Part shown: positions 1 through 36,013 of the stretch, piece after piece
Layout of the letters: every line of letters starts with the position of its first letter
Numbering within the stretch: the first letter of the stretch is position 1
Origin: Blasia pusilla
Taxonomy: Eukaryota
Assembly (NCBI GenBank): GCA_050084515.1
Contig: CM114271.1
Span: forward strand, 12,710,001 to 12,774,000
DNA length: 64,000 nucleotides
Reading direction: 5' to 3'
The notes under the pieces: generated by a model
Told to the model about the DNA's origin: nothing
The model's input: the letters and a program-made list of their open reading frames with translations, nothing else
The model's database searches: none
Position numbers and translations under genes: made by a program

Positions 1-2464
1 TGGAGCCCTCACCCATTGCGTGGCCCACCATGGCTCGCATGAGCACTTACGGTCCTTATTTTTGTCCATTAGGACAAACATAAGTCTACGGACATGGACA
101 TGTCCGCGGACGCAAACTTTGTTCGTGTGCAACCTTGCAACCGATCATCAAGGCTCAAGACCCTGGAGGTAGAATCCAACTATAAAAATTGTATGGAAGT
201 CTACAAGCTTAGAGGACTTCTTTTTCGCTCTTCTTGAAATCTCAACATCAATCACTTTGAAAACTCATTAAGGCATCAAGCATATATTCTCAAGTCTCCA
301 AAATCTCTAAGATGAGATCAATATACCCCTTCAAAATCCTCCTTGATCTCTCTTAATTTCAAAAACCTTCAATCAACAATCAAAGTTTTCCACAACACCC
401 TTGCGCGTTTGACTTCACTTTCTGAGAGTTAAAGAAAGGATATGATAAGATTCAAATTCTGAAAGAAAACGCAACTTCCTATATTTCCAATGTTGTCTCA
501 ATCTCTTTACGCTCACATATAGAGCTCTCTCAAAGCTCCAAAATTTCTTCTTCAACTTTGTGCAACAGAATTCTTATGCCCCATTTCACTTCACAACGTC
601 TTTTGTGCTCTCTATTTTTTATCGTGATCTACAACCTAGTGTTTTGGAAGATTTTTTCTTCTTGGCTTTCCAATGTGCCTTTGATCTCCCCAAAAAATTT
701 CCATTTGCTCCTCTAAAAGGTGTTTTACTCTCGCTGAACTTATCTTTTCAAATCTATTTTAAGGAGCTCTTGCCATTTGACTACTTTTGAATGGTAAAGA
801 CTTTTAAAATCATCCTTGGTCAGTGTTAATACCTTGCCAATTTACTCAAGGTATTACGTTCTCTTTCTTTGAGATTTATTCTTGATCAAATCTTTACCAA
901 GATTCTTCGGCGGTCGACAGGGTAACATCGACACTGTTATTTTTTGGACGGCTGCTATGATGATTAACCTCCACCTTTTATCTTCTTTCCTTTTAAACTT
1001 TAGAAATCTTGTTTCTACTCTACGGGAGTATAGCCTTCATACTTGTTATGGGCTTCAACATCTTCTACCTTAGGTTTCAAAGGTTAGAAATCTCAATTTA
1101 GATGATCAAATTTACTTGTGGATTTAATCTTTAAAACCCATGTAAATTTAGAATATAGCTACACATTTACAATGCTATGATAATTAGACCGTATTGTTTT
1201 CTGAAGAGCTCAGCTACTATTTCATAGGTATAATCACTTGGAGACATACAAGGGTTGATTATAATGGCATTTGTTACACCCTAGTGTATAACTTCCTAAG
1301 ATGCTTAGAATCCAATAGCACCTTAAATTCCGTGTCATATTATAATTAGTACGTGGGCCAACACATAAGATGTTCGCCCTTTCCCCTAGGGGAAAGGTAA
1401 TCACTCGTAAAGGGGGCCGAGAGAATTTTTTTTTGGGGTTAAAAAAGCATGGTAAAACGTATTTACGAGAGAGGAGGAAACTCCTAAAGAGAAAAGAAGA
1501 TGTTTCTTTCTAATTCTAAGACTAAAATGAACAGGCGGGCCCAACTACGGTGGCGGTCCCACCGTAAGGCGAACTACTCTCTTCGTGGACGGAGGCGCTT
1601 GTCACGTGTCGTAGGCGAATCGGCTGATCCGGTTCAGCCGTAATCCGTGGCGGGAAGTGGTGGGTCCGGTGGGGCCCTCAGGGAAAGAAGCGAGGGGTCG
1701 TTTCATTTCATTTGACGGGGACAGTGACTGGCTACCACCACCTGCAGCTGAGCACATTTGCCTTTCATAGCAAAGCATGGAATCCCCGCCTTTCGTGCCG
1801 TATCTATGTCCGTATCTGTGCCCATTTATGAGCCTCCCTGCTACGACTAGCCTTGTGGCTTTCTGCGATTCTTCAAGCCTTTGGTTTGTATTCCGTTCCG
1901 GTCGGGACCGCACTCGCTTCATCTCACTCTGGTGGTTCGTCTCTTCTAAAATAATGAACTCTGGTGGTTCGCCTTTCTGGCCTGCAACGCTCCGCCTCGT
2001 TTGCTGATGAGTGAGTAGTGATTGGGTGGGTGGCGTTTCGTCGATTCTCTTGTGCTTCGCGATGATCTGGTGTCCGCGTTCTCATTTCTGGTAGCCGAGT
2101 CCACCGAGTGGGAGATCGTGCAGCAGCGATTGGTGGATTCTGCATGCGCAACGTCCTGGCCGAAGGCGAAGGGTTGTGTCGGCGCTGCTGTGGCTTCGAG
2201 ACTCGGTCTGTGCGTGAAGTTCTCTCGCCTTACATTTCGAGCGAGCTGTCGGAGACGGAGGATCGATTGGGATTGAGGAGCGGGTGAGTGAGGATTGGTT
2301 CTGCAGCAGCGGTGGGTTTGCTGGTGGTTTGAGCTGAGGAGAATCCATGGTCCCGTGAACGTTCGTGAGGTGGGAGGTAGAAGTGGTTCAAGTGGTTGGA
2401 GTAGCTCTTGAACCCGAAATCGCTTGAGATTTCCTTTGTCAGTGATTTAGTGCCGAGGGGTACC

Positions 2465-3826
2465 ATGGGTTTTGGTCCTGGAGATATACTGTCACTAATA
2501 TGGAGTCATCCCATAGCTTCGGTTATCGTGGCTCTTCTCTTCACCCCACCCTTGTTCCCAATCGTAGTGTTCTTCTCCCCGCTCCTGATTTCCACGGCCC
2601 TCGTCGTGCTCGCCATGGTTAGCATGGGCTCGGAGGTCGACGAAACTCCTAGTAACTACGGCAGCGATTCGCATTACAAGCGAGGTTGGCGGGAGCAGGA
2701 TTACGACGATGGCCGGGTATTCGATGACGACGAGGTCAAGAAGTCTCCAAAGAGACTCAGATCTTCGGCCCAGGAAGACGGATGGCTGAACAAGGTGAAG
2801 AGCTGGGAAGAAACTGGGCGAGCTTGGGTGGAGAGCGTCTTGCATCAGGAGGGATGGAAGGCCAGTCCGAACTCCAGCGGTGGAGCCGGAGAAACGCCAC
2901 CCCACACAATCGATCGCCAGAATGAGATCTTGAGCGTCGTATCAAACATCTCTCAGTCTATAAAGCAGACTTCTGATGCTTCGTCCAAAGTTTCGGATTC
3001 AAAATCCGAGTCCATATCTAAGCCTCTAGATTCCGCTTCCGATGTCACCCACAGAGGAGTGGCTTCCTCCAGCGACGCACCACGGGTCAAGCCAGAGAGC
3101 AGCCGGAAGATGAGCGAAATCACATCCGAGCCTGAACCCGAGGAAGAGCTGATCGAGTTAACTCCTCGCGACATGCACGGATTACCTCCATCGGCGAATT
3201 CGACCAGCAAGGGAAAGGAGAAGGTGGAGGATCTCCACCCCGAGGACAACAGAACTCAGGTGAAGTGGGACGAAGAACTACCAGTCAGCGGCGACGGCAC
3301 CAGCGGTGTCTTTGATCCCTCCAAGGAGTCAGCGATCGACAGCGCCTTCGGTGCGGCTCCTAAGACTGACACCGACGCCGCGGTCGAGCCGGATGCCTCT
3401 GGCGAGAAGACCAGCCATGGCGCTGGGGAAGCTCCTCCGGCCTCGGCGGCGGTGCGAGATCGAAGGGTGGAAAATATCGCGGTGAAGTCAGGCAGCGCTG
3501 AAGCGACGGGAGATTCCTCCGTCACTGCCGAGCACTCCTCCAGTCACCCCGCCGCCAAAGCGATCCGAGAACGTCGCGTGGAGCACCAGAGAACGCCGTC
3601 CGTCGCCGTGGAGCTTTCGGAGAAGCTCAACGTTCCTCTCGAGGATCTCATGTCGCTCCTCGCCGGAGACAAGGCCTCTACCTCCGGCGAGGTCCCTGTC
3701 GGCAAAGGTGTCTCGTCGTCGGAGACCACCACTTCGCAGGAGGAGGAATGGTCGAGCTCCGATGACGAGTCGTCTCAAGCAGCGCCCAAGGCCGACGAAA
3801 TTCAGCAGCCAGACAGGAAGAATTGA
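2465..3826 (+). CDS. Single-exon protein (~453 aa) with N-terminal hydrophobic membrane anchor and long acidic/Ser-rich disordered tail; function unknown
   Basis: Long uninterrupted GC-rich ORF. First ATG is at 2465 in accATGG context (the track's 2408 start is TTG). N-terminus SHPIASVIVALLFTPPLFPIVVFFSPLLISTALVVLAMVS resembles the HP...P...SP(V/L)L..TA.L anchor of some uncharacterised plant proteins. Confidence 0.75.
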   Translation: MGFGPGDILSLIWSHPIASVIVALLFTPPLFPIVVFFSPLLISTALVVLAMVSMGSEVDETPSNYGSDSHYKRGWREQDYDDGRVFDDDEVKKSPKRLRSSAQEDGWLNKVKSWEETGRAWVESVLHQEGWKASPNSSGGAGETPPHTIDRQNEILSVVSNISQSIKQTSDASSKVSDSKSESISKPLDSASDVTHRGVASSSDAPRVKPESSRKMSEITSEPEPEEELIELTPRDMHGLPPSANSTSKGKEKVEDLHPEDNRTQVKWDEELPVSGDGTSGVFDPSKESAIDSAFGAAPKTDTDAAVEPDASGEKTSHGAGEAPPASAAVRDRRVENIAVKSGSAEATGDSSVTAEHSSSHPAAKAIRERRVEHQRTPSVAVELSEKLNVPLEDLMSLLAGDKASTSGEVPVGKGVSSSETTTSQEEEWSSSDDESSQAAPKADEIQQPDRKN

Positions 3827-6800
3827 AACGGATGTACTTTTTGGTAGCTGGCAGGCCTCATCAAAATCTAAGAATAGCTATTTGGGAGCTCGGGCATCGG
3901 TGGGTAACGAATCGAGCTTCTTCTGAAGCTGGTTGTGAAGTGAGTCGGTCCTATCCCTCTCTATCTCTCTCACGCGGGGAGCCAGGGTTTCGTGGATCTT
4001 TCCACATTTTCCCGTCATGGACGGGCGTGAGCATTGGACTCGGAGCGATGCTTCGATCGTCGCCACGGACTGTTTTGTTCAGCTGGCTGAACCGAGCTGC
4101 CATCAAGCTGCCGTTGCGCGGAGCTTTAGGTGAAGAGTATGAGATGCCCGATCTGTCCATAGTTTTCATACGTCGGATCGGTATGGTGCGTCAGGTGAGA
4201 ATTTCCACCACAGGATGGTCATGAGGTTCTGAAGCTGGAAGTGGCTGCTGTGCAATGACGCGGTGGGTGATCGTGGAAGGTTCGGAACAGGCGCCTTCGA
4301 GTCGTTCGAGCACAATTTGGAGGAGTATGAAGTAGTTGTAGCATTCCGATGTCTTTTGTAGATGGCAAGTGTGTAAAGAATCTCTGATTGCTTCGGCGTG
4401 TAGCACTCCAGAATGGAACTGTATGCATATCAATGAGCTTTCAAACTTCTGACATCCTCTTGCGAATTGGGATCCGCAATCGGTTTGATAATGCGCAGTG
4501 TGCGTCTCCGCCTCCGTACTCGGATGGAAATGAAATCACATCTTCCAACTCTTTCCAATTATTCTGAGTGTTCGCATTCCCTACTCTGCCCATTCCTTGC
4601 ACCGGAAAATGTCGTACCCCTGACGTGCGATCATCATGTGTTTTGCTGGCATGGGTCGTTTCCGTTAGCTCCCTTCATGGTAAAGAGAGGAATGGCGATA
4701 GATGTCGAGGTTGTCGGCAGGGAAAATCCCAGCGAAAATGAGAGCTCTGGTCAGTAGGCAGCCGTCCGCACATTTGCCACATATTTGAAGCTGTAACAGA
4801 CGATTGGTCCGGAAGTCTTATTCTGTTGCCTCAATTCCGCATGCATCCAACTCCCTTAACCTTCAACCTTGTTTTCCTGGAAGGATTGAAGAATCTCATG
4901 AATGTAGTTGTAATTTCTTGTTGTAACCTTTTAATTTGCCGAAATTTACGCCTCTCTAGGTATTCGCACGAGCAAGGATGCTCGTGCGAGTACCTCCAGG
5001 CTGTTTTGAGATCTGGTATCGTACTTCCGAGGGTCTAGAGTGCAGTATTTACATATCCGTATGTGTTCTTTAAAAGCTGCATTCTCCAAGCGTATCCTTG
5101 TTACACACTTCGTTCAGTAATTCCCACCACCGCATACACCAGTAATTTTGTGCGTGCGAAATGCATTCAGCCATAGGAGTGTTGTCTAGAATACGTGAAA
5201 GTCCTTTCTTCTTTGTTCTTCGGATTGTCGTCTTAATGATCCCTTGTTCACTCTCGTTTTCTTTCATTCTCTTAATGATCCCTTGTGTTATTTACGTCAG
5301 GAAAGTCTCCATATGGAAGCATTCTTCAATTTATTCAAGTCGATGCTTGGGGCGGCTAGTTGTCATTTTCTTTCTCCATTCTATTATGGATTTTTTATTC
5401 ATTTTTGGAGATGTTCTTATTTTTTTGGGTCAACTTTTGAACTTTATTTTATAAAAAAGTGGATAGAAGAGAGAGAACGACTTTTGGTGTTGCTCTCTCT
5501 CTTCTACAATCGAAAGTCAAGTTTGAGGAATATTTCATATGGGCAGTTTTATTGATTTCTTCATCATTAAATGTTTTCGGACGCGATATGAACATCAAAT
5601 CTATCCACATTTCTCTTCAAAACTGAATCTCATCGATTTAAATAAAAATGCCAATTATTTGGTAGTATCTTCTGGTCTTCCTAGCAGGAAGATATTATCA
5701 AATATTTCTTTAAGAGATATGAAATGTATATATCTAGAAGAGGACGAGGTTAGAGTAATCCCTTTTTAGATGTAACACCTGTCTTGTAAGGGTTGAAAGA
5801 GTTGAATTAAGGAAATAACAAAATAAAATGGTACACCTGTCTTGTTAAGAGTTCTTATGGTGTGTACGCATGTCATTTTGAAAGAGCTGAATTAAGGAGA
5901 AATTATAAAATAAGGTAAGCATCATCACGGACATTGGCTAATGCTAATCAAACTTGTACTATCATGAGGTGAACAAAAATAAAGAAAATAATTGATGTAC
6001 AGAAAGGAGATAGAATGGAGAGCATTTTTCATTTTTGGTTGAAGAGGTTCAAGTGATATACATTCAAAGAAAGATGTGAAAACGTGGTAAGAAAGCACAA
6101 ATGAAATTCATTGACAAATGGGTAGGAAACATTGGTTTATCCCCATCTTTTCGAGTATGTAATCATTTTCATCAAACTTCCAAATCTGACTTCTATAGTC
6201 TAATCAGGTTACAATTTTTATATACATTAGCAAACAGCCCATGCCAGTTTATACCTCAAATTTCATCTTAAACCCTATTTGGCCTTTCCTCTTTTTCTTT
6301 CTGTCCTCTCTCTTTGCTCCTAAGCTCCCATCTTTTTTATTTTATTTTCTTGATAAATTACACATGTTTACATTAGAGGAATCCAAACACAATTTACGAA
6401 TCTCGACTCCTCTTCTTGACACCTGTGTTCGTAAATTCGTCCTCTTTTCATAATATAGAAGAATCAAGAGTAATATTTACTATCAAGATATCTATACAAC
6501 TAAGTATCTAATTTCACACTTTCATAATCAGTATTCTTGTTTTTAAAAATTTGTTTCATAAACAAGTGATTTTTTTTTATATCATACCCAAGTATACTAT
6601 GGTAGAAAAAAATGTACGATATGATTATATGATACATTTAGAGAAGGAGGAATCCTATGTGTGTTATTTTACCTTCAAGTTATGCTCTTAGACTAGTCTC
6701 ATATTCTTAGAGATGTGGAGGAATGAGTTTTCTTTGAGCCCATATTAGATTTCATTTTTGTCTCATTTAAGTCTTTTATTTTATTATTGTAAATATTTAT

Positions 6801-7358
6801 CTGGTTGTGACAACCATTCTTTGAATTGAATGAAATAGTTAAGAGATTTTTGCTAGAGAATTATTTTGTATTATATTTATAGATTTATTAAAAATAAATT
6901 AGTTATATTTTTAATTAAAAGATTCACTTCATAAAAGTCTAAAATTCAAGGGATTGAATAGTGATGTAGTGTTCAATATTGTCATTTCATTCTCACTAAA
7001 ATTTGGTTTAATTGTATTCTTTTAATTTGAATAAAATGGGAACATTTGTATGGATGACATATATCTAGAAGCACATGTGATAAAAAAGAACATTTTCACA
7101 GTTTTATAAATTAACTTGAAATTTTAGGCATATTCAGCCTTGATCAAGAGAAATGGAATAAATCAAATTTTGTGATAGGATAATCTACTCTTATGATAAG
7201 GTTGAATCAAGACTTTATCTATTCACAATCAAAAAATTACAAAACCTTAATTTCTACATAGTAGGGAGGGTGAGTTTGTCTATCTCAATATTTGGAATGG
7301 GGAGAGTGGCACTTTGAATGTTGTAGTCTCAAACTTATTTTTGATGCCTACAAAACCG

Positions 7359-7481
7359 TGTCGTGCGCATACACATCGCTACACATACATCGATGTCATT
7401 GAAGACACACACAAACACGCACGATCCCATGCTAACTCATGGCATCCAAATAACGAGACAAGAAGTACTAAAATATCTCCA
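7359..7481 (-). repeat. LTR segment A (123 bp, directly after the polypurine tract)
   Basis: On the minus strand the PPT GGGGAGAG-AT is followed by TGGAGAT...CGCACGACA. Closely similar to 18556-18681; its end matches 40351-40370. Confidence 0.85.
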
Positions 7482-7662
7482 ATCTCTCCCCTAGTTGGTG
7501 GTTAGGTCCCTCTAACTCCAGATAGCCATATATCCCTACCAACCATGACATCGGACACTAGGAGCAAGAAAGGCTGGGTGCTCATGTGGCCCCATCGTTA
7601 GTCGCCTTCCTGTCATCCATATTACAGAAAAAGTCGGAATCAAAACCTACCTAGTATCTCCT

Positions 7663-7815
7663 CTATGTATATCTGGGACACATCCATTGTCCTCGAGGAA
7701 CCCTAGTGAGAGGTGGTGTCAGACATGCCATATGCCAACCTCTCGAACATCCATCCCACACAAGCATCGTGGCCGCACCACGAGCAACACCACACAACAT
7801 ACAACGCAAGCCTGC
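7663..7815 (-). pseudogene. PHD finger at the integrase C-terminus
   Basis: LRCMLCG...MLVWDGCSRGWHMACLTPPLTRVPRGQWMCPRY fits the C4HC3 PHD pattern with two Cys mutated and the typical HxxCLxPPL..VP.G.W.CP. Confidence 0.85.
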
Positions 7816-7938
7816 ATGATCTACTGTACCATCAATGTTAGGAAGGTGACATGGCGCATAATTACGCACATGGTCCTTCCATACCATACCATCGCGTCCC
7901 TCCAGCAAGAGAACACCGGATGGAAAAACGCCACGCAC

Positions 7939-8700
7939 TCAAGGGATAGTGCGCCCAGGAGTCACATCCAACGTCGTCGGTACCGTCTGCTGCAAGTAGA
8001 CATAATCTCTCTGATGAAACCTTCGGATAGTTGGTCGACAACCACCACCCCCAATAGTCGCATACCTCAACGTATCCCGATGCTGCGCAATCGCCAAGTT
8101 CTCAAACGCCATGGGCATCACTCTCCAAAACAACTTAGCCCTCTGAGAACATGCTCGCATCAATACATCTGGGTCATCAAGGTCTAGCTCCTCATCAGCA
8201 TCTCGACGAATGGCCGCAGATAAATCTGGCTCTCGGCCATAAAGTAGCAAGTACGATGAAAAAGACGCTAAGGATGCCTGCCTGCTGAATCTGTATCCCA
8301 TCACCAACCACGGCAACCAGAGGTCCCAATCTCCCAGGTGACCTCTCTGTAAGCCATACTTGCGTAGACCCCTCTTCATCGTCTGCACAACTCTCTCCGC
8401 TAATCCATCCGCCTCAGGATGATCTCGTGAAGTCGTGCGGTGGTCGATCAACGCCTGATCACACAAGGCCTGGAACTCACCGCAAAACTTGGTACCCTCG
8501 TCTGTCAACACCTCAGCCGGTGCGCCATAATGACTCAACACTTTGTCAAGGAAGGCATAAGCTACTCCCTCACTCGCTTTGTCAGGAAATGCAACCAACT
8601 CGATCCACTTCGATAAGTGCTCGACCATCACAAGCCCAGAACGACTGTGACGCTCCGTCAAAGGCAAAGGTCTTGCAAAATCCAAAATCCATCTATACCC
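7939..8700 (-). pseudogene. Retroviral-type integrase core (rve)
   Basis: DFARPLP...VEHLSKW...GAPAEVLTDEGTKF...HPEADGLAERVVQT; D,D(35)E-type layout. Confidence 0.92.
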
Positions 8701-9263
8701 TTAGCCAATGATCGGTAATGGATGCAACTGTGGATTCGGAACATTGAACGATACTGAATCTGGAGCAAGCTGTACGTCCGCTTCACCCCAAAGTGACCCA
8801 ACTCCTCGTGGGCATGCTGCACTAGTCATGCTCTCTGTAGAGGATGTGGCACTACGCGTACTCTACCATCCTCTCAAACCCTCAAAACATGTGTCCCCTC
8901 CCAACTGAACCGTCTGGCCCGTTGTAGGATCTAATCCCGCTCTCTAGCACCCACGGTGCTTGCAACGCTGCATGAACGAAGGTACTCCAAGACTACTCCA
9001 TCATCATGAATATCTCAGCCACATGTCGTCTCCTCATTGGCCTCGGGATCCAAGGACTCTCTACTAGACCTCGCCATCGAAGTATCCACACTCTGGCTCT
9101 CCATAGCCAACATGCCTAAATAGGCTGATGCGTGCCATCCTGGAACTGACTCCTCATCACTCTCTCCATGCCATCGAGCTCTAGTCGCATCTCACTGACT
9201 CGGGCATGAGTTACGACTCAACCCAAATACATCTTGGTTGAGCATCCCAGATCTATGTACCAC

Positions 9264-10404
9264 CTAAAAATCATACTCCTGCAACAATAGAGCCCATCTC
9301 GCAAGCTTCCCTGTAAGCTTGTCGGACTCCATCAACCACTTCAGTGGTTGATGATCACTTATGATGATAAAGGGATTTCCGAATAAGTAACACCTGAAAT
9401 GCGCGAAAGCCCACATTGCAGCCAAGCACTCACCCTCATATGAGCTGTACTTCAACTTTGCAGCGTTGTTCGAGCGGCTAGCGTAAGCCACCACAAACTC
9501 TCTATCCTCCTCATCATGCTGGGTTAGCACCGCTCCAATCCCCAACATGCTCCAATATATGTGCAACTAGAAAGGACGCCCCCCCTGACTGGCCTCCTCA
9601 AGATGGGCGCAGACGTCAACCTGTCCTTGAGCAACTGAAATGCTTGCTGTTGCTCATCCCCCTAGTGCCACTCATGATCCACCTTGGTCAGCAAGGTTAG
9701 CGGCTTCGCAATCGAACTAAATCCCTTGACGTACCGCGGATAGAAGTTCGCCAATCCCATGAATGCGCGAACACGGCTCACATCTGTAGGGCGTGGAATG
9801 CATGAGATAGCCTCCACCTTCGTCTGCTGAACACCAAGGCCCCCTCGGTATATCGTATGACCCAAGTACTCAATCTGGTCGTAGAAGAACTTGCACTTGC
9901 CTGGATGTAGCTTCAGCCGATGTAATTGCAATCGTCAAAATGTCGCTCAAGCTCCTCAACCGTGGCGCTAAAGACTACGATGTCATCAAGATAACACCTA
10001 GCAAAATCCAGACCAGCCAAGATCCTATCAATGACGCTCTGAAACTCATCCGGGGCGTTCTTTAACCCAAATGGTAAGAACCGCCACTGGTACAAACAAT
10101 CCTTCCCGTGAGGATTGATGCCCCAAAATGCCGTCTTCTGCCTGTCATCCAATATGATAGGCAGCTGATGGTATCCGGCTCGCAAATCCAATGAACTGAA
10201 GACCTTTGCGTGACCAATCGCATCAAAGATCTTCTCAGGGGTGGGCATGGCATACCTATCAGACCTTGTCTGCCGATTGATAGGTCCGTAATCCCCACAC
10301 ATCCACCTATCGGTCCAGTTGCCATGCACATCCTTCTTGGCGGGCATGACAGTGGCAGATGCATACTCCCCATGGGACATCTCCACTAGTCCTGCTCTGA
10401 CCAA
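9264..10404 (-). pseudogene. Gypsy reverse transcriptase and RNase H (frameshifted)
   Basis: MCGDY, FSSLDLRAGYHQ, LPFGLKNAP, YLDD, KCKF...YLGH. RNase H: GIGAVLTQ...AYASR...YSSYEGECLA...SDHQPLKWL...GKLARWALLLQEYDF. Confidence 0.93.
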
Positions 10405-10979
10405 GTCTTGGCTCTACTCTGAATTAGAGCCCTCTCAATATCACTATACCTGTAGGGTCTTCGAAAGATCGGCGTATCACTCGACAACTCAATGCGGATC
10501 TCCGGTCCCTTCAGCGTACCCAAATCCTCCATGCTAAATGCAAAGCAGCTCCTATAACTCGTGAGGAACTGATGTATCCAGCGCTGCTCTCCTCCCGTCA
10601 ACTTAGGGCCCATATCTTGCTCCCAAGTCTCCATTGTGACTACGGTAGGACTCTCCGGCGCGGGTATCTGTGGTTTCTATGGTGCAACCCTGTCTCGAAC
10701 AACAACACTCGGTTGCTCTCTTGCAACCAACTGCAAACTCTCATCTCCCCCACATGCAGTGCCCGGAACCACGCTCGATGCTATGGCTATCATGTCCTGG
10801 CGTACTTGCAAAACATCCCAAGAAGTCCAAGGGTGTCTCTCCCAATCTCCCCTGGTGTGTAGATCTCCTTGGGTCTCGCCTCTAGCCCCTGCCTCCACCG
10901 TCTTGGTAGGCACGGGGCTCACCAACGCAACCACTGTGATCTGTCGCGATCTCATACAACGCTGCTCAGCCACTCCCAA

Positions 10980-11925
10980 GCTGAGGATCCATGTCAACCA
11001 GTTCAGGTCCATTGCCTGACCCAAGACATAGCGTCGTGATGCCTCTGACATTGACAGTACTGTCGTCACTCTTGTGGGAAATCCCATCGCTCGCTCTCTC
11101 TTGTTAGCATTGGGCTCCATCAACTGCTGAACCTGGTCATCCCAAACCAAGCCAGGACCGGCCTCCTTGTATGCATAGGAAGCGGGAAAAATCACAAACG
11201 TGGGCAAGGCTTCCCACGGCCTGCTTACCTCGTTGACCACAGTCAACGGTGGTCAATCATCGTGCCTCACTGCTTGTGATCGACGACCTGGATCCAAAAT
11301 GTAATCCAATAAAAAATGGGAGGGGCACTCCACCTCGCATCTGCCCTCCGTAACACCGCATGGGGCACCAAGTTGGTCCACCATAGACGTGGGCGATGGG
11401 CTATAGAACCTCACTCGCCACATCTAAGAACGCTATTGGGCTAATCCAGACACGCACATGATGAGCACTCGTCACCACCCGTGACTTGGAGTCTCCTAAG
11501 ATCAGCACATTCCTCAAGATTTAGGATGGAGAACGAGATTGGTGCTCATGCAACTGCCCTAAGACCCTCAACATCTCCCAAAACAACCTCGACCGAGTGT
11601 CAGCCAACTCGGTGCCTCGTCCAGCACTCGATTGGCCCTGACATGGCCAACCGAAAATGACCAAATCAATGGTCCCTACCCAATCTAAGTCCTACGCCCC
11701 CAACAACGGAATATCCCTCGGTAGGGAACTCTGGTACCCCTGTACCGCGGAGGCCGAGAATAAGTCAAGAAAACGTAAGCATAACTACGCCACATGTTGT
11801 AGTGAGATGTGCTTTGCAACATCATCACTCTCCACATACAGGTACTGATGCTCTCGCACTCCTGCCTGCAAAACAACAGCTAACCCGGGGCTAATCCCTC
11901 CAAAGAGATCTAACACTTGAATATC
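10980..11925 (-). pseudogene. C5-cytosine DNA methyltransferase domain (DNMT3-like) within the retrotransposon polyprotein
   Basis: Motif I VLDLFGGI (~11895-11920); IV IDLVIFGWPCQGQSSAG..L.D.RS.LFWE (~11575-11675); VI ILRNV for ENV (~11506-11520); VIII AHRPRLWWTNL (~11370-11402); IX RERAMGFP..T and X RRYVLGQAMD (~11000-11100). All are in canonical order. Confidence 0.88.
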
Positions 11926-12233
11926 TTCCTCCACGATACACCACACAATGGGTGTGGTATCCAAGGGTGTCATCATAGCACTCCCTGCTACCTCGGATTC
12001 CTTAAACCCGTCAAGCTCTGGTGCAAACGCCTCGCTCCACGCGGTCTGCACGTGCTCATCTGCCAATCGTCGAAGCTCCTCAGTCGAGCCCCATAACGAC
12101 ACCTCTCCTCCACGGAATCATGCGGCTACCATAACACTTCTCTCCATAGAAATGTCAGGAACGGGAGTATCCTCTGCATGGACATATCCCTCAATCAAAT
12201 CACCAGGCCAAGTGATGGCACTGCTAAATGCTG

Positions 12234-12630
12234 CTAAGGTTGCCACCTCTCACCTCTGCATCGAACGGGTAATGTGCTAAGGCGCCCATCACGTGACTGC
12301 CATCGTGGTCTGTAGGACGCTGACTCCTCCCAGTAATCCAGGGAAAACCCCATCGGGTATAACAGTGCTCCACCAACCAAGACGTCGTAGGACTCTACAT
12401 CAGTCACTATCGCCTTGGCTCGCACCACAGACTCATCAGTAGGATGTCTCGGGCGAATCCTCACCACGACCTCATGTCGGGTGATATACTGTGTGGTACT
12501 CGCTCCACCCAAGGATGTCTGTATCCGGAATGGAAAACGCTCCACATCAACTCTTGTCAAGCCCAATCCTCTGAATGATGCTTTCCCCACCATCAGGGGT
12601 TGTGCTCCTCAATCCAACAAGACGCGCTGT
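12234..12630 (-). pseudogene. Aspartic protease of the gypsy element
   Basis: RVLLD*GAQPLMVG (the sister copy at ~39575-39612 reads ILLDSGAQPLMLG) and YDVLVGGALL. Confidence 0.8.
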
Positions 12631-13518
12631 CGACTAAAAGCTCTACCTCCGGGACTCACCAACTGGAAGACCTCTCCTTGTTGATCCAGCTACACAACAC
12701 CAGGAGAAGCCATGGCACGCTCTATCGCGGGTCTAGCGGGGATCTCCGCCATCCTAGCAGCCGCAGCCTGCCATGAATATGACGTGGACGGCCTAAGCAT
12801 CCGCTCTAAGGGCAAGTCCATCACCTCCTCTGCAATCGCCTCTGAACGTGATGCAGGAACTCCAACTCCGCGCTCACATAATGAAGCGTCCAACGGAAAA
12901 GCCTCGGCGGGCGTACCCCCCAACGTCATAACATCGGAAGCAGAAAATAAAGGAGTGCGGTACACAACGGTGGCCACCCCCAACAACGTGCTTGACACAT
13001 GGCCCTCTTGAGCATAAAAAATAGGAGTTGTGGCACTCACTTCTCCTATTGCCCTCCGTGCGTGCACACCAACAACATTACCAATTGTCCAAGAACTTTG
13101 ATGCGGACCCATCGATGGAGTCCTCATCGCTTCGGACAACGTGAAAGACTTAAGAAGCTTAGTTTGTTTCTTGACTTCCCCTCGCTGTGGATCCAACTCT
13201 GCAACTGCTCCATGCATCTCAACTTTGGCTACCTCCATCTGGGCAACCAGGCACATCCAACCAGGATTCTCCATATCTCTGGCTGCTCCATATGATGTCG
13301 ATGCCACGGATACGGCATCGGGTAATCTCAATGCCATAACGACAATATGCTCATGTAGCTGATGTATCTGAGCAACCATCCTAGCCTCTTGCCCGGCATC
13401 TCCCTCGATGCATCTAGGTGGTAGGACTCTATCTCCTCTACGGGCAGCTCCACTACCGTGTCTGGCAACCACAGTTCCTCGTCCCCCAACGGGACTACCT
13501 GGTGCACGATTCTCTCTT

Positions 13519-14033
13519 TGTAAAGTAAGATCCAATCTCTCTCTACACCATCTCAGACCATAGCTCTCAAAGGTATGCACTCTCTCTCATGTCAAACCAA
13601 ACCCACTCTCCTAATGAAAGGCTTGTGTTACACTCACAAGGCAAGGGACCATAGCTCCGTTGCCTTATGCCAAGAGGTTCAACAAAGAGAGAGTGAGCTC
13701 TCAAGCTCTCTCTCTTGGAGGTATACTCCCTTCCCTCTCCCAAGCCCTCTCAACAGTAACCTATGCTCGCACGTCACCTCCTTGGCTCTTGAAAAACTAT
13801 AGCGGGTCAAGGGCCACTTCCCAAAGTGGAAAGTCAAGTATCCCCAACATGGAAACTTACTCGAAATAGTAAGTTTCTCTATATGGCTCCAAATGAGCCG
13901 AAACGAAGGGGAAACCTGCTCTCTCAGGTTTCGTGGGGTCTTGACAGGTCATCCTCGACCTCCTGGGTCTTTCCTACACTACTCGTGTAGACGCTCTGCT
14001 AGATCCCACCGATCTATCCTAATTGTCGTGACA
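13519..14033 (-). repeat. LTR segment B (~515 bp), 5' end of the DNMT-gypsy element
   Basis: Aligns along its length with 18683-19198. On the minus strand it begins TGTCAC and ends TTTACA, then runs directly into mid-gag sequence with no PBS. Confidence 0.85.
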
Positions 14034-14099
14034 ACCGCAACAATAGTTGACATACCATGATTACCAAATTGAGATTAAGTAATTGAAGAATTGGATTGC

Positions 14100-15550
14100 A
14101 CTAGAAAACCAGTTGAATTTTTTGGAAAACATGTTTTGCATCGCCAATTCTAATTGTTGTATTTTTGTATGATAGGCAAGTGCATCCATATATTCAAAAC
14201 CCAAAGTCTCTTTCACCAACCAAATTTTGAATCTAAATTAAAATAGTGGTGTTTGAGATCCCATTCTCAAATCCATCATTGTGATTGATTCTTGTGCTAA
14301 GTCCATCATTTCAATGAATCATACATATATCTAGAAGATTCTTGGTTCAAATTTAGTTATTTTAATTGAATTGAGTCAATTTCAATCTCATAAAAAAATA
14401 ACTAAATTTAAATATATTTCCAATCTTATAATTTGGATGTGGAACAAAATTTTATTTCTTTGATGATACAAAAGACCTTGTATTTTTGCACGTGGCACTT
14501 ATCAATTTTTTGTAAAGTCTTAGGGTTTTAAAAAAAAATTGCATACTCATTTTAAGACTTGCATAGCGGTGCATATACTTGGATCAATCAGAAGCAATAT
14601 TAGTCTTTGAAGGGAGGGTTGTACATGATAAAATAGTGGAACATGACCAACATCATCTATATTATCATGAGAGAGCGCCCTATTTGTTTTTGAACACTTG
14701 TACTTCTGACACATGGTGGTCTTAGCCACCATTAGCCTAACATGTGGCCTTAGGTCTGATGTTTAGGGTTGGTTTGAGAAGTCAATTAAGTTGACTCACA
14801 CGAGGTCAATTTTGGGATCAAGTCTATTGAAATGGCCAATCATAACCCTAACTCGTGCATAGACTAGTGATGAGGAAAAAAAGATTCACTATCCTCTATG
14901 TTGAGATGATGTGTCGCTCGAATGTCCCTATTTTCAGAATTTATGATAGCTCTTCTTTGGACATTTTTGCAGAGCTAGCCTTCCAATGCTAGCACCAAAA
15001 AAATTTCCATACCATTAGAATCTTGAAGTATGATCTCAACCTTTATTATTATTAGAGAAATTTTTTTGGATTTAGAAACATCCCTTTGATTGAAAAATGC
15101 CATTGGGGCAACAATATCTTATTTTGGTAATACTTGATAGAGAAATTTTCTGGCCACATGAGCAATAAGAATTTAAAGAAAATAAATTAACCATGATTGG
15201 CTTTGTACATATCATGTGTTCCATACTAGTGTTAGATAAACAAGCTTGCATGCTTGCATTTTGGTATCTAAAAAAAGGCTCATTGAAAGGTAAGAATTAC
15301 TTGAATGATCTAAAGCCAAATTATGAACAACTAGAAAATTGGTGATACTTTCATGAATTTCCCTTCGTTGGATGTCTCGCAACAAGATTCCATAAGTTCT
15401 CAAGCTTTTCAAAAGCTTTATGAGGATTTTCAATGTTGCTAGGAGGAGTGGAAGGTATTTCGAGTGTTGTCTCCGTGTAGGTGATGGATTCATTTTGTGA
15501 ATCCACACCTCCTTATTTTGCTTGTAGTCCCTTCCGTTCGGAAGGTAGTG
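14100..15550 (-). pseudogene. Possible heavily decayed hAT-like transposase remnant
   Basis: Only scattered fragments (e.g. RVMIGHF; HV...LQRLILL) loosely resemble hAT motifs; no intact frame. Confidence 0.25.
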
Positions 15551-18500
15551 GTATGGGAGGTCATGTTCTATTGATGAAGAATAACAATTAGTCTATGAGT
15601 TGTTAACAAGAGCCTTCAAGTAGACTTGCATCCTAACATTTTTAACTCAAAGAAAATCTAATAATTGAAAGAGGATGGGGTTAGAGAAACCTTCCTCCCA
15701 TGTTGCCACCTATCTTTTCAACATGTCCGATGTTGACATGTGTGACATGTTAAAGAAACAATAATTGAAAGACCAAAGATTGGACGGATGCCTAGAATCC
15801 TTTCCCCTCGCCAAACTAGAGCGGATCCCAAGAAATCATCGGTGTATGCTAGTACATACATATGTAAGTCACTTTCACAATCCCCAACATGTGCGCAAGC
15901 TCACTAGTTGTCAACATAGGTACATTTTAGCTTGTCTAAATTAAGAGCAAAATTCTACATGTTAAGAACATGTGTATAAACCATCTCCTTCTTGGGATTA
16001 CGTTAACTACAATAGCCACGCGAGATCCACTTCGGAAAAAAAATGCAAACATTGTGAATAGATGTCAAAACATGCCACAGAAATCAACCCCACTGCCATC
16101 CAATTCCTGACTATCGTTTCAAAGTTTTAAGTATGGAAGACTAACGAACAAATCGCCAGCACTGCACTTCCAATACCGAGCGAAAAAGTGTGAATCCAAA
16201 CCGCTACCATGTGCAAGGCTAACTGACAGCAGCACACTTCAAAAAAGATGACGGTAAACTATCACTCGTCCAATCTAATCTCTCTCGAAAAACGCACCTA
16301 AAACGATAACTCACTCGTCCAATTGCTGACTCTTGTTGCAATCTTGTACCTCGGCCATTCTCGGATTTGTGCTGATTTGCAGTTGAACTCCTCCATCGTT
16401 CCTCCGTGTCTAACAAAGGCTCCTGAAACACCACCTGCGGCTCGTGGCCGGTGAGCGGATCGTTACTCCGTGTCTAACAAAGGCTCCTGCTGTGGATGTG
16501 TTTTGGAATCTGGCACGCTTGTCAAACCCTAAAACCGAGGCAGAACCATCCGTTGTAGGGTATTAATACGACTTACCTTGGTTCTGTCTGTTCAGATGGA
16601 GGACGTAAAGTCTGCAAATGAATCAAGTCATTGAAAGGGCCGCTATTGCATTAATACTACTGTAGGAAGTTGGAACTCGATGGGATCTCGTGTGTCTGTT
16701 ATCGAACTGATAATATGTGCAATCCGTCTGTAAACTCCTTCTCTTTTCGCTTGTTTGAGAAACACCGCGGCTAACGCCTTTGAAGGAACTGACGGATGCT
16801 GTGCGGGATGCCTTTCGCCATCTGCCTTGAAGTGCCTTTCCTTCGTAAGGTTATGGCTGAGATTCGATTTACTGGATGGATCTGTTTCTTCCCGTTATGG
16901 ACTGTATTCCGAGTGCTACTGCGAGTGAATTCTTCCCATTCCGAGTATACAATGATCGTCTATGCCCGTCGCCAGTCGGGCAGAGCAGGAGCTGTGATAG
17001 AAGGTTACAGGATAAGAACTGGAACGTGAAGGAATCGGAATGGTTGCATTTGTGCTTCACTTACCGCAATCTGGCCGCTGGGTGTAGAAGTTGGGTCCGA
17101 TCGTGTTGTTCCGGAGGGTGCAGGTGAGGAGGCTGTTCGAGCGCTTCCTAGACGGACTGGAGGTGGAATGCTGATGGAAAGGAAGAGTGAATTGTGCGAT
17201 GAACACTCATAGAGATAACATTTGCAAGAGCGCATACAGCTTCCCGTGGTTTTTCGTATGTACGAAGCCCCTCCGGATCGTGACGAGTACTTGGATTTAG
17301 CGCGCAAGCTTGATCGATCACCAAACTTTTTGCTTCTGCGTTGCTCCGTCTCCGCAACAGGGAACGTGTGTCAGTCTCAGCTTCGCAAGGAGAACAGTAG
17401 GATTCAAAGGCGCTTCTTGCGAATTACCGACTATGTGCCAAATTCTGAAGGGCATGAATTCTCCTCGAGGAGCGGTTGTATCGGATCATGATCTGCAACA
17501 CGTGACCGCAGATTCCACTCCTGCACTCCTGCAGAAGTGGAATTGATATCTCGCGCATATGTCTGTCTGTTTCTTCCACTCGCAGCGATTCTACGGTCCC
17601 GACTCCATACTGCCCTCTAGAAACGGCTAAAATCTTTTTAATTCAAACGGGCTGCCGGTACCCGGTCCCTCCAGTTTCTTGCCGTTCAAACAATCAGGTT
17701 AGTCCAACCGGTGGACGAAGTCGATCGGTTTCACGCAACCGGGAAGTGAGTACTAGAACGATTTTCCGTGCACACAATTTTCTCTTAAATTAATACCAAA
17801 AATTGAGGGAGAATTTTCTTACTTGACTTAGCTCCTTGCAAGTCCCTGTTTGGGTCGGCGCGACCCCGCAAGGAGCTGGTTGGAAATAGTGGCGAGAGGG
17901 TCTTAAAACTCGTGCCCGGTGTATTCTGGGTGCGAATTTTATTGAGGTCCCAAGAGTTTCAACCGTTAGATAAGAAAAATCCGAACAAACATCTACGACC
18001 CTGGGGTCGGGTCCTAACAACCTCGGCCGCATGGGATTGGGTCCTTAGAGCCGGGTCCCATGGGTGGGATGTCGCAGCGACCTTCTTGGGTCGCCACTTT
18101 TTCTGCACATTTTTTGGGTGCAGAAATTGTCCAGCATCCTGGCGATGCTTCTCACTGTATATCTCTCGATTTCTGCTAAAAACTTGTGTACCTTCTTGGC
18201 TTGTCCTACGGAAATACAAATTGGTCCCGGAAATGAGGTTGCTGCGACCTCTACGGAGGCACCCGACCCTTATAATGTAGTTTTCCTTTTGAATCGCCTT
18301 GAGGCTTTCCTCCATACTCTCCAAGTTGCCGCACGGCAGTCTATGGACAAGCTACGGAATTGTGTATACGTATGAACTGACCGTAATGCCCAAGGGGTGC
18401 AAATGTATCTTTCCCAGACTTAGGCTTAGTCTCGTGCGACGCCATGACTTTGCTTGCATGGGTCAAAATGCACACGCAAAGGTACATCATTATATAAACG

Positions 18501-18555: not shown

Positions 18556-19198
18556 TGTCGTGCCCATATACATCGCTACACAACATACATCGATGTCAGC
18601 AAACACAGACACAAACACGCATGATCCCATGCTAACTCATGGCATCCAAACAACGAGACAAGAAGTACCAAAATATCTCCAATAAAGTAAGATCTAATCT
18701 CTCTCTACACAATCTCACACCATAGCTCTCAAAGGTGTGCACTCTCTCTCATGTTAAACCAAACCCACTCTCCTAATGAGAGGCTTGGGTTACACTCACA
18801 AGGCAAGGGACCATAGCTCCGCGGCCTCATGCCAAGAGCTTCAACAAATAGAGAATGAGCTCTCAAACTCTCTCTCCTTGGGATATATATCCCTCCCCTC
18901 TCCCAAGCTCTCTCCATGGTAACCTATTCTCCCAAGTCATCTCCTTGGCTCTTGACCTGATGTAGGAGGTCAAGGGCCACTTACCAAAAATAGAAAGTCG
19001 ATCCTATACTCAAAATGGTACTTACCTAAAATAGTAAGTTCCTCAATATGGCTCCAAATGAGCCAAAACGAAGGGGAAACCTGCTTTCTCAGGTTTCCCG
19101 GTGCCTCAGCAGGTCATCTTCGACCTCCTAGGACTCTCCTCCACTACTCTTGAAGACGTTCTACTAGATCTCACTGATCTATCCTAAAGGACGTAAGA
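18556..19198 (-). mobile_element. Non-coding 643-bp derivative (segment B joined directly to segment A) of the DNMT-gypsy family
   Basis: 18556-18681 matches 7359-7481 and 18683-19198 matches 13521-14033. Flanked by 4-bp TSD GAGA (18552-18555 and 19199-19202). Confidence 0.88.
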
Positions 19199-21510
19199 GA
19201 GATGTCTGCATTTGCATATTGTACATGCCAATGCACGAAATTGTCCCAACCATGATCCTCGGAAAGAATTTTTCGTGCCTACTAAATCCCACTGCTTGTG
19301 TAAGATCCGTATGCATTTAAGTTTCACTATGAGAATAAAATTCAAGAACACAATCCCCTTCTCACCACCAAAGAAACATAACTTCATATGAGTTGTGCAT
19401 ATATTTTACCTCGAGCAACATTGGAGCTTATTCTCCTAATATTATCAATGTGAAGGAAAATCAAAGGATGTCCCTATTTTGTCTTATTCTGTCACTATTT
19501 TATCTTCTTAGGCATGTGGGGTTGCCAATAATAGTATAGATGCGCAAACCTATGGCACGTTTCCCTTTCGTGCCTTTGTCTATCGCAAGGTTGAATTTGT
19601 GCGCCATTTCATGATAGATTAGGCGCGTACCACCATATCAAAATGATCAAGCAACATGTGTTGTGCAAGATGCAAATCACTAGCCTTTGTGATAGGCGGA
19701 GCGGCATATGCGACAAGAGACGTCATTAATGCCACTACTACACTCTGTCAATGTGTATACTACCCTTGAGATAGTGTATATAGCGTAGGTGGTGAAGGCG
19801 AACCTTAAAGAATAGTACACCATGGCAATGCAACACATTTAGCCACTTTCTTTTTGAATTCTCATTTTTTAATAAAAAAATATGGAAATGGAAAATATAC
19901 ATGAAAAAATTTGATATCAAATGAATGGATGGAGATACTCATGGAATATGGAAAATGAAGACCCTTGAAAAAAAGCAAATATGAAAATGGGAAAATCTGG
20001 TAAATGATGGGAATATGACATTTCAACAATGGAAAATGGAGACATAAAGTCATGGAGGAATTCCAAAATAGGTGAAATTTTCCAGCAGAAATAGGTGAAG
20101 TAAATTAAAAAATTGTAGGGAAAATTTCCCAGAAAATAATCATTCTGTCGCAAGCCTTTGGGATACACTCCAACCATGGAAATCTGATCGAAAAAGATTT
20201 TTGAGGGACATTCCAAAGATGGAAATATAGTTGTACAACTTTCCTACAACAAATTTTGGAGAACATTCTGAACAATCCCCTACAATCAAAATTTCACTCG
20301 TGTAACATCTTCGAAAATATGATCCAATCCTAGAAGTTAGCATACGATGAACTAATGAAGGAGTTGAAAATGAAAAAAGAAAAGACACAATCATTTTGGA
20401 CAGATACGCTCTTTATTTTTCATCCATTTGAAAGGGAAGGCAAAAAGGCTATCTTAATTAGACAAAAGATAAAATTATATGGAGTCCACAGCGAAGACAA
20501 TTATTAAGTGAATCTTATATCTTTTATAAAAGTTCTCTCCCAAAATGAGACATACGGGGTTATTCCTAGAATAAATCACACCGATGGCCACCACTTTAGG
20601 CCATAACGCATGATTCAACATGTAATTAGGAAGTAATGGGTATTACGACATGGCCAATGTACCGAGGAGATGGTTTTCATATCCTTGGCATATGTCGATA
20701 TGAGTTCTGAAGTGTTCATGATGAAGAATATTATTTTTGTATTACAACAATGCTATGTTTGGTTGGAGACTCGAGGTCTCATATTAGTCCCTTAGTGTGC
20801 AACCCTTGTTCGCGACTGGGCATGATGAGAATGTTGAAAACATTTGTTTGCAGCACATAATGGATTTTTGGAGCCCCTACTATGATAATTTCAATCAAAC
20901 AGTCATTCGGACATCAAGATAAGGTTCTCCAATTATAGTATAAATTAACCTGGGAAAGTCTGGACGAGCTGGGATCACAGGGATTCCTGGTGTTCACGCT
21001 ACTATTGATTGCCTTTTGAGACCAACTTTAATAGCGATTTTTAAAATGTCCATGGATCACATCCGCATGGTTATGTTTTCTCAAAAGAGAAGATTGATCT
21101 ACTCATCAGTCGCCATGTGGGTACAGATTCAAAACTGTGGGGCAGAAGGGGCATGGCCCCCATATTCTCATGGCCTGATCGAGCCCACTTCCATAGTGAG
21201 AACAACGTGGGCCTTCTAAGGAATCGAGCATGTGGTATGTGGTATGGACTCGGAAGAGTCGTGCTCCTCCAACAAGACAGCTATTAGAAGGCCGATTCTT
21301 AAATACCAATTGATCATTTAATGTGTTTGCTGTATTCTTCACATAAAAAGTCCCTTGGTAAAATTGAGTCATATCAGTGGTTGTGAGAGTATTTTTTACT
21401 TTTGCCCTTCTTGTTGTATTGTGATCATTCTGGTCGGTTTTCCAGGAGGAACGAAGAGTTCAAACGCAAAACATGGAGGGCGAGGAAGGCTATGCTCAAT
21501 TTACTGTCAA

Positions 21511-34826: not shown

Positions 34827-36013
34827 CGCCTACGCCTCTCGCACCTGCGTCCCGGTGGTTCCTCAACTCCTCTCTCTCACGGCCCTCAAATCTATGAGAC
34901 TGACTAGCGGGGGATATCGAACGTGTCCATAACGTATATACAACTTGACTTAAGGAGATCATCCATGTCGCCTAGAGTTTAAGACGTTGACAATTGAAAC
35001 TGAACGAGAGAAGACTACGGAGCAGTCTGAGAAACCACAGCAACTACCACACACACACACAGAAAGACGCTAATACCACAGATGGCTGGCGTAAGATAGA
35101 GGGGATAGGTGTAGAGAGTCAGGCAGCGAGCGGAACGGAGTACCTACGAGAAAGCCTCTCTGTGATAGTAGGGAACCGTGCGACACTGACCAAAGCGCGT
35201 TCGGAGTGCTCGGCCGGAAGAATAATAGGACGAACAGAGCTCAACTTCCACACCGATACCAAAATTAGATCGTTAATACAGCATGGACTCTCATTCTTGC
35301 ACATGGCTATCTTCCTTCCACGTCCCGAACGCCTGTATAGAAACAGCAAATTGCACCACTCCCTAACAAATGTTCCAACAACAACAGGTGAAGGAGTCGG
35401 CGAAGCACTTGATCCAAGGGAAACAACAATAAAATAAGTCAGCAGACAGAGCAGACGCGCGGAGCGCGGTTTGAAGCGCAGCGACTGGATGCCAATTGCG
35501 GGCCAGACACACAAGTGACCGAAAGACCCTGACTCCCGGCGCGTCTCCAGTCAAGTCCGCACCTCCCGAGTCAACCCCGGGAAAGCACGATATTCAGACG
35601 GCGGCATACTCCGATCAAGGAACGCACCTGGAAAATTCGCTCCGACGTTCTGACCGTGTTCGGGGATTCAGAGCGAGGCTCCGAGGGCTTCGGAACGAAT
35701 ATTTGACGGCTGGGGTGAGAGGCCGGTCGAGTGACTCTAGTCGACTGGGGTAACCGGGGGCCTATCCGCTCACCACAGTTGACTAACTCTCGTAAATTTG
35801 CTTTGATCATGTTATTAGCATGATATTAGAAGGTGTGTGCGCCAAATTTCTATGTTGGATTAGTTTGTGAAAAATAGGGATGTAGGCTTCGAAATTTACA
35901 TGATTTTAAATGGCATTTTAGGAGACGGAAGAGAACCCCAAATCACTTTAGACTCACAATATGGCCATAATCATAATATCAAAAAAAATTGGGATATTTG
36001 CTTTTAGAAGACA

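Follow-up and report, generated by a model that had tools for sequence, protein, structure and literature searches.

A decayed Ty3/gypsy-type retrotransposon with a predicted DNMT3-type cytosine methyltransferase in Blasia pusilla

Introduction

Gypsy elements bearing a Dnmt3 gene have been described from the charophyte alga Klebsormidium nitens, and according to the legend of Fig. 4c in that paper these KnitGypsy-Dnmt3 elements join the repeat structure of DIRS elements to the domains of Gypsy elements (de Mendoza et al. 2018; PMC5890265). Two later papers use the expression 'streptophytes (Gypsy-DNMT3)' in passages that cite the same work. For land plants, one printed statement holds that transposon-encoded methylases are absent (PMC6338049), and the passages of Yaari 2019 on this topic do not mention element-borne DNMT3. 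No printed report of bryophyte copies was found in our search, outside which lay the supplements of PMC5890265 and PMC12344493 that might list some. Here we analyze a stretch of 64,000 nucleotides from Blasia pusilla (GenBank assembly GCA_050084515.1, contig CM114271.1, positions 12,710,001 to 12,774,000 of the forward strand), called the window below, in which a retrotransposon copy with a methyltransferase segment lies on the minus strand. All coordinates are window positions.

We consider it highly probable that this copy, at 7359-14035, is a decayed and partly deleted member of a very abundant Ty3/gypsy-type family equipped with a DNMT3-type enzyme, of the KnitGypsy-Dnmt3 kind. Elements of this kind were thus already described in 2018, and the window family adds to them; the charophyte precedent that a preliminary description of the window had mentioned is genuine (PMC5890265). 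Both the alga's elements and the window family have a non-permuted DNMT3 methyltransferase in a coding region with Gypsy-type domains, DIRS-type repeats in place of ordinary long terminal repeats (LTRs), a streptophyte host, and signs of purifying selection (Ka/Ks below 0.2 in K. nitens, 0.11-0.18 here). In contrast to KnitGypsy-Dnmt3, the closest named relatives of the window element are liverworts and a moss, not Klebsormidium. Further points of comparison are the place of the enzyme in the window family, between protease (PR) and reverse transcriptase (RT) and before a conserved stop, and a PHD finger after the integrase (INT), a domain with no mention in the text of PMC5890265 covered here.

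Results

A methyltransferase segment within the retroelement coding region

The element copy stands out from the window by its GC content (0.51-0.52, against 0.35 in the flanks), by a genomic read depth of 1465-4134 that drops to about zero beyond its ends, and by termini that match those of a stand-alone repeat unit of the same family (Table 1). Its genes follow the order gag, protease, methyltransferase (DNMT), stop, RT, RNase H (RH), integrase and PHD finger. All six C5-methyltransferase motifs named in the preliminary description were located between protease and RT on the minus strand, and their order is I, IV, VI, VIII, IX, X. The open reading frame (ORF) pieces of this region, taken from stop to stop, occupy 12117-10677. 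The 56-aa piece with motif IV matches PF00145 (E 3.4e-8, 33.7 bits, Pfam cut-off 22), as was to be checked for this segment, and the remaining three methyltransferase pieces gave no significant Pfam match individually. The gag and protease pieces, too, have no Pfam match alone, and both match relatives by BLAST; the protease ORF starts immediately after a stop sited at the active-site motif.

Table 1. Coordinates of the element copy, its parts and a related repeat unit in the window (aa, amino acids; nt, nucleotides)
Feature	Position	Strand	Basis or remark
Whole element copy, form A1-internal-B1	7359-14035	-	GC, read depth, ends matched to 18556-19200 unit
Repeat A, 5' terminal repeat, 515 nt	13521-14035	-	85% identity to 18683-19187; includes 13 conserved bases, 14023-14035
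gag remnant, part 3' of the zinc knuckle	12690-13586	-	298-aa ORF; with protease matches P0177 residues 306-658
Aspartic protease	12234-12608	-	50-62% identity to protease part of Sphagnum/Marchantia models (BLAST)
DNMT3-type C5 cytosine methyltransferase domain, motifs I-X	10980-11930	-	motifs, PF00145, P0177 alignment; typing at family level
Motif I, VLDLFGGIS	11890-11916	-	
Motif IV, FGWPCQGQSSAG	11620-11655	-	followed by TRSRLFWE at 11575-11598
Motif VI, ILRNV	11506-11520	-	Arg in place of the Glu of the relatives' ENV
Motif VIII, AHRPRLWWTNL	11369-11401	-	in a different frame
Motif IX, RERAMGFP	11076-11099	-	
Motif X, LGQAMD	11007-11024	-	
In-frame TAG, methyltransferase linker/RT border	10677-10679	-	conserved stop site of the family; flanking ORFs in one frame
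Reverse transcriptase, three ORF pieces with frame changes	9662-10676	-	RVT_1 E 1.4e-15
RNase H	9264-9566	-	RT_RNaseH PF17917 E 6.5e-33
Integrase core	7939-8700	-	rve E 5.7e-9
PHD finger, C-terminal end of integrase frame	7663-7938	-	PF00628 E 2e-8
Repeat B, 3' repeat, 125 nt, terminating ...ACGACA	7359-7483	-	90% identity to 18556-18683
Stand-alone A-B unit, same family, solo-LTR counterpart	18556-19200	-	18556-18683 vs 7359-7483, 90%; 18683-19187 vs 13521-14022, 85%

A frameshift-aware reading of the segment was obtained from the Marchantia polymorpha gag-PR-DNMT gene model P0177, which aligns colinearly with 13484-10779 over three frames at 37-74% identity, far above chance. It extends from gag through the whole methyltransferase linker, and no insertion borders were seen in it. 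Five in-frame stops (12120-12118, 11787-11785, 11694-11692, 11523-11521 and 11255-11253) interrupt the window copy between protease and domain end, four of them within the methyltransferase part, which also contains two frame changes, near 11411 and near 11333-11342. RT and integrase are likewise broken. The copy is a dead relic without function, as had been proposed from its stops and frameshifts. At the two methyltransferase frame changes the window copy is one base longer or shorter than 376 of 1061 and 602 of 1123 family reads, so these breaks are private to part of the family.

Losses extend beyond point damage. The window copy has no downstream A2-B2 repeats, and the counterpart of P0177 residues 1-305, with the capsid and zinc-knuckle portion of gag, is missing, block A joining the middle of gag directly (13484-13586, 13521-14035). 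The zinc-binding N-terminal part of the integrase is damaged, and most family reads diverge at 8751/8752. RT carries the motif YLDDIVVF at 9970-9993 and is 63-81% identical to metagenome relatives. In the PHD finger of this copy the final zinc-binding pair is damaged, the frame ending in ...WMCPRYT and then a stop (7663-7700).

Abundance and transcription of the family

Genomic reads labelled with the same species (run X16, 12,434,590 sampled) were mapped on 6500-15000 at a likeness of at least 80%, and 144,525 of them (1.2%) map to the element. The five methyltransferase bins (10760-12179) have depths of 1465-2207; elsewhere the depth is 1904-2504 in gag and protease, 2835-3372 in RT and 0-0.15 in six flank bins. 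Since its depth matches that of gag and protease, the methyltransferase is an integral part of the family, carried at the level of the rest of the upstream half. We also weighed a single event by which this one copy would have captured, or received as a nested insert, part of a host DNMT3 gene or of another element. Such an event would account for the single segment-bearing copy within the window and for a segment depth below that of RT, but it is scarcely credible and was rejected: the segment reaches a depth of thousands, equal to that of gag and protease, the PR-DNMT-RT order is shared by 71 of 80 metagenome loci and by gene models of four named streptophytes, and P0177 runs colinearly from gag to the stop. 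Other family copies contain the segment, and PF00145 matches it, which disposes of the one-off nested fragment that the preliminary description had named as its own refutation.

The family is large, diverse and mostly old. Differences between the reads and the window copy are mostly transitions, an excess that would fit the decay of methylated DNA. Loose read ends, at places where most family reads depart from the window copy, accumulate at 8751 (1652 reads), 8752 (1142), 9357 (1048) and around 13792-13864 (1376 and 1490), suggesting private deletions or replacements, of which one affects the zinc-binding region of the integrase.

Reads of three RNA runs extend over the entire element with a strand bias of 10- to 100-fold, the first mates being mainly on the plus strand. 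In the bin 11044-11327, for instance, plus and minus first mates stand at 56.7 vs 4.6, 52.8 vs 0.57 and 76.4 vs 4.26 in the three runs. The transcripts apparently represent the sense strand of the element, if the libraries follow the usual convention. Among the listed index entries that contain the stretch, none is on record as RNA.

Relatives and two domain layouts

Used as query in a word-index search, the 191-aa piece with motifs IX/X led to gene models of Sphagnum jensenii and Marchantia polymorpha; the 56-aa piece with motif IV, searched in the same way against longer proteins, gave no match. An exhaustive protein search retrieved 424 proteins at E <=1e-3. The named relatives are Sphagnum jensenii, Marchantia polymorpha (seven gene models), Calypogeia fissa and Closterium sp. 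NIES-68. Among 30 clusters that were looked up, the named ones belong to C. fissa, M. polymorpha and Closterium sp. NIES-68 and the remainder are metagenome proteins; no K. nitens protein occurs among these 30 clusters or among 24 named rows of the profile search. Three more Marchantia models, 961-1167 aa long, emerged from that profile search; they contain gag, protease and a nearly complete methyltransferase and are 62-65% identical to the motif IV piece of the window. Marchantia P0176 is 62-64% identical to the window in the PR, motif IV and motif IX/X pieces and 47% in the motif I piece. The family is not rare in bryophytes, with relatives present in the genomes of at least three of them, and the earlier remark that such elements are no standard feature of land plants has to be qualified to that extent.

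The 80 metagenome loci were retrieved with alignment A2 of close relatives; a locus search with P0139 alone gave no relative. Two relatives keep the window's layout in open frames. Protein P0101 is an open frame of 2188 aa with zf-CCHC, Asp_protease_2, PF00145 (5.9e-12), RVT_1, RNase H and integrase, and locus L002 has open frames of 1369 and 1047 aa with only the stop between them. The PHD finger recurs in the second ORF of L002 (2.6e-10) and in 18 of 22 near-complete loci.

Layouts were surveyed in 45 proteins that contain both motif IV and motifs IX/X, as found by local BLAST with the window pieces. Twelve of them have the PR-DNMT-RT arrangement of the window, 22 have the arrangement RT-RH-DNMT-INT-PHD, and 11 were left unassigned. 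The second layout, found in P0135, P0106, P0089, P0151, P0148 and others, accounts for one of the 80 loci (L035). In a tree restricted to element-borne domains, the methyltransferase domains of the two layouts are separated by one branch with support 100/99.

A relic of a related element is present at 38424-39788 on the plus strand of the window. Its gag and protease have 36% identity to P0177 residues 222-619, and nothing that matches a methyltransferase, RT or integrase was seen after them.

Type and conservation of the methyltransferase

Since the window copy is broken, profile and fold comparisons for typing were made on its relatives. A profile of 12 sequences (A1) has its best match in DNMT3A (E 3.4e-22), and its first 29 rows are all DNMT3A/B/C, against 1.8e-10 for tobacco DRM and about 2e-8 for DRM2 and M.HhaI. 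The match to DNMT3A is colinear, running from motif I through motifs IV-VIII to motifs IX-X. DRM2, in contrast, matches over motifs I-IV alone and more weakly, as expected of a permuted enzyme. A model of the intact L008 domain, built from 30 sequences (pLDDT 92.8), has only DNMT3A/B/C structures at Foldseek ranks 1-49 (E 1.4e-20, TM 0.74/0.82), with 21-24% identity to DNMT3A/B. A model of the whole 695-aa protein (alignment A2, 7 sequences) was dropped at pLDDT 45. The evidence supports a DNMT3-type, colinear enzyme with predicted activity, and the earlier assignment, which had set it apart from a captured DRM on account of motif order, holds. Unlike the host enzymes DNMT3A/3B/3C, whose catalytic domain and fold they resemble, the element relatives embed the domain in a retroelement frame without PWWP or ADD; Pfam detected neither these readers of the animal enzymes nor the DUF of the plant ones in P0101, L002 and P0177.

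Motifs I, IV (Cys), VI (ENV), VIII and IX are conserved across 22 diverse members, and the methyltransferase domain is uninterrupted in seven of the 80 metagenome loci. dN/dS is 0.12 for L002-L003 (dS 0.27), and 0.11 and 0.18 for the more distant pairs L001-L002 and L008-L009, in which dS is near saturation. To judge by these comparisons, intact relatives retain the catalytic motifs and evolve under purifying selection.

Many family members read GWECQ for GWPCQ in motif IV, with Glu for the Pro of the catalytic pair. This form occurs in all but three domains of the second layout and in three domains of the window's layout; the window copy itself has GWPCQ.

Split direct repeats in a Ty3/gypsy-type element

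The window contains no LTR pair, and the region 5000-16500 has no direct repeats of at least 40 nt, on which ground an ordinary LTR pair was rejected. Reads from the rest of the family reveal another arrangement. Among the reads listed, 982 link 13521 to 7482/7483, joining A to B, and 504 link 14022-14035 to 7359, joining B to A. The loose ends of 1088 reads that exit B continue into the start of A, and the depth of repeat A (4134) is about twice that of gag (1904-2255). Twelve metagenome loci have distant direct repeats. In the three of them with downstream room that were examined, B flanks A2 on both sides: L051 (105 nt, 95%), L072 (111 nt, 93%) and L070 (71 nt, 90%). L008 has a similar pair of A repeats, cut off by the end of the locus. 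The repeats of the family are therefore split direct repeats of the form A1-internal-B1-A2-B2, not ordinary LTRs. The window copy, A-internal-B, may be what recombination between two B repeats leaves behind, and the A-B unit at 18.6 kb the leftover of recombination between two A repeats.

In its coding region the element resembles Ty3/gypsy retrotransposons such as Ty3 and the chromoviruses, sharing the gag-PR-RT-RH-INT order, an RT closest to that of Ty3 and a chromatin-reader module at the integrase C-terminus. It differs from them in its split direct repeats instead of two LTRs, in a PHD finger instead of a chromodomain, in the extra methyltransferase, and in an in-frame stop that divides the two halves where they have a frameshift or a single frame. 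The Ty3/gypsy identity given in the preliminary description thus stood with respect to the order of gag, PR, DNMT, RT, RNase H and INT and to the Ty3-like RT; as a correction, the repeats are not ordinary LTRs.

Split repeats of the A1-B1-A2-B2 form are the hallmark of PAT-like and Ngaro elements as these are presented in PMC4157794, which would agree with a DIRS-like retrotransposon that uses a tyrosine recombinase. This identity is nonetheless very improbable. PAT-like and Ngaro elements have a tyrosine recombinase (PMC4157794), whereas the integrase of the window family is of the DDE type (rve) and carries an H2C2 zinc domain, and Pfam detected no tyrosine recombinase; the RT is closest to Ty3, which is the top match of the P0101 RT (7q5b, E 2.3e-91); and the two ends of the element read TG...CA.

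A conserved stop between methyltransferase and reverse transcriptase

An anchor motif at the start of RT was located in 52 sequences, namely the window and 51 loci, and in none of the other 29 loci. At the homologous codon, 44 of the 51 anchor-bearing loci have a TAG or TAA stop with CAA or CAG as the next codon. As exceptions, L052 has two stops, the nearest stop lies elsewhere in L066, L067 and L075, and L019, L057 and L068 have a sense codon. The stop is common to lineages whose methyltransferase domains are just 47-53% identical (L001-L003 vs L008 and L009). Sphagnum and Marchantia gene models terminate at this site, and the C-terminal residues of Sphagnum P0001 are those that precede the stop in the main locus group.

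Because a conserved in-frame stop separates the methyltransferase from RT, the enzyme belongs, as far as these reading frames tell, to the gag-protease frame in most relatives. This modifies the earlier placement of the enzyme with pol: same strand and PR-DNMT-RT order were borne out, and the frame in most relatives is that of gag and protease, before the stop. Tobamoviruses use UAG with CAR-YYA after it as their readthrough context. The genomic RNA would be translated as Gag-PR-DNMT, and at the putatively leaky UAG or UAA before CAA ribosomes would sometimes proceed into RT-RH-INT-PHD. On this model the output of methyltransferase would be similar to that of Gag and exceed that of RT and integrase.

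One might instead take the stop for mere decay in a family that makes one continuous polyprotein. P0101, P0153 and P0158 are indeed continuous from methyltransferase to RT, most loci are decayed in any case, and decay of the C-to-T type readily creates stops, transitions prevailing among the read differences. We regard this as improbable, given a stop at the identical codon in such divergent lineages, CAA or CAG after it in almost all anchor-bearing loci (44 of 51), open frames on either side of it in L002, and gene models of a moss and a liverwort that end there.

Other features of the window

Among ten long ORFs that were scanned, the only clear host gene is an intronless frame of 658 aa for a plant U-box/ARM-repeat E3 ligase at 32853-34829 on the minus strand (U-box 2.2e-9, Arm 4e-20, ARM_PUB 1.4e-13). 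The Atlas clusters closest to this protein are without exception from streptophytes. An open frame of 473 aa at 2405-3826 on the plus strand, in a stretch with GC 0.57, has only weak sub-threshold Pfam matches (Sigma70_r3, 8e-4).

Discussion

For the function of the methyltransferase, we tentatively favor methylation of newly made cDNA of the element itself, ahead of integration or during it; this possibility falls somewhat short of an even chance, and no other single function was rated higher. The enzyme would be released by the protease, and the PHD finger on the integrase could steer integration by reading histone tails. It is also conceivable, and in our estimate unlikely, that the domain is retained without methylating element cDNA, acting on RNA or host DNA or contributing only DNA binding or structure to Gag-PR. 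No DNA methylation by KnitGypsy-Dnmt3 was seen in yeast, GWECQ replaces the usual Pro-Cys of motif IV in many members, and the methyltransferase sits in the Gag-side frame, all of which would suit such a role. Catalytic motifs kept in 22 diverse members, dN/dS values of 0.11-0.18 and a fold closest to DNA-bound DNMT3A speak against such a role, although none of these fixes the substrate.

Beyond this copy, we propose that a streptophyte-wide lineage of integrase-bearing, split-repeat Ty3/gypsy elements, with DNMT3 in the Gag-protease frame before a conserved leaky stop, persists into land plants, with representatives in Marchantia, Calypogeia and Sphagnum and with about 1% of the window species' reads, a proposal for which we see the chances as evenly balanced. 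Such a lineage in land plants would contradict the printed absence of transposon-encoded methylases there (PMC6338049).

Several observations weigh against these interpretations. Kinship with KnitGypsy-Dnmt3 would rest on shared architecture and not on a tree, and the absence of methylation activity in yeast, cited above, comes from an assay that its authors deemed inconclusive (PMC5890265). The methyltransferase domain is broken in 73 of the 80 metagenome loci. Only 137 of the 144,525 mapped reads are at least 99% like the window copy and 98,094 are less than 90% alike; the family may be old in this genome and most of its copies dead. No open-frame copy from the genome of the window was encountered, the assembly itself lying outside the search. 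Its commonest form may be a gag-deleted, non-autonomous derivative, since the window copy has no capsid and zinc-knuckle part of gag. At the stop, the sense codons of L019, L057 and L068 and the continuous frames of P0101, P0153 and P0158 count on the same side, as does the context of the window copy, TAG AAA instead of TAG CAA. The sense of the RNA strand is assumed from customary library convention and not from a stated protocol.

Within the printed sources searched, we did not find the presence of such elements in land plants, their share of about 1% of reads or their strand-biased transcripts, nor the Gag-side placement of the enzyme by the stop, the PHD finger, and the second layout with DNMT between RNase H and integrase. 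Retrotransposons are normally targets of cytosine methylation, so where an element supplies a de novo methyltransferase itself, one must ask which side profits. Should some copies be active, transposon-made DNMT3 could contribute to de novo methylation in bryophytes, and the findings bear on how bryophyte methylomes are established. Since the genetic model Marchantia polymorpha has near-intact gene models of the family, the function of these enzymes is testable in a tractable land plant.

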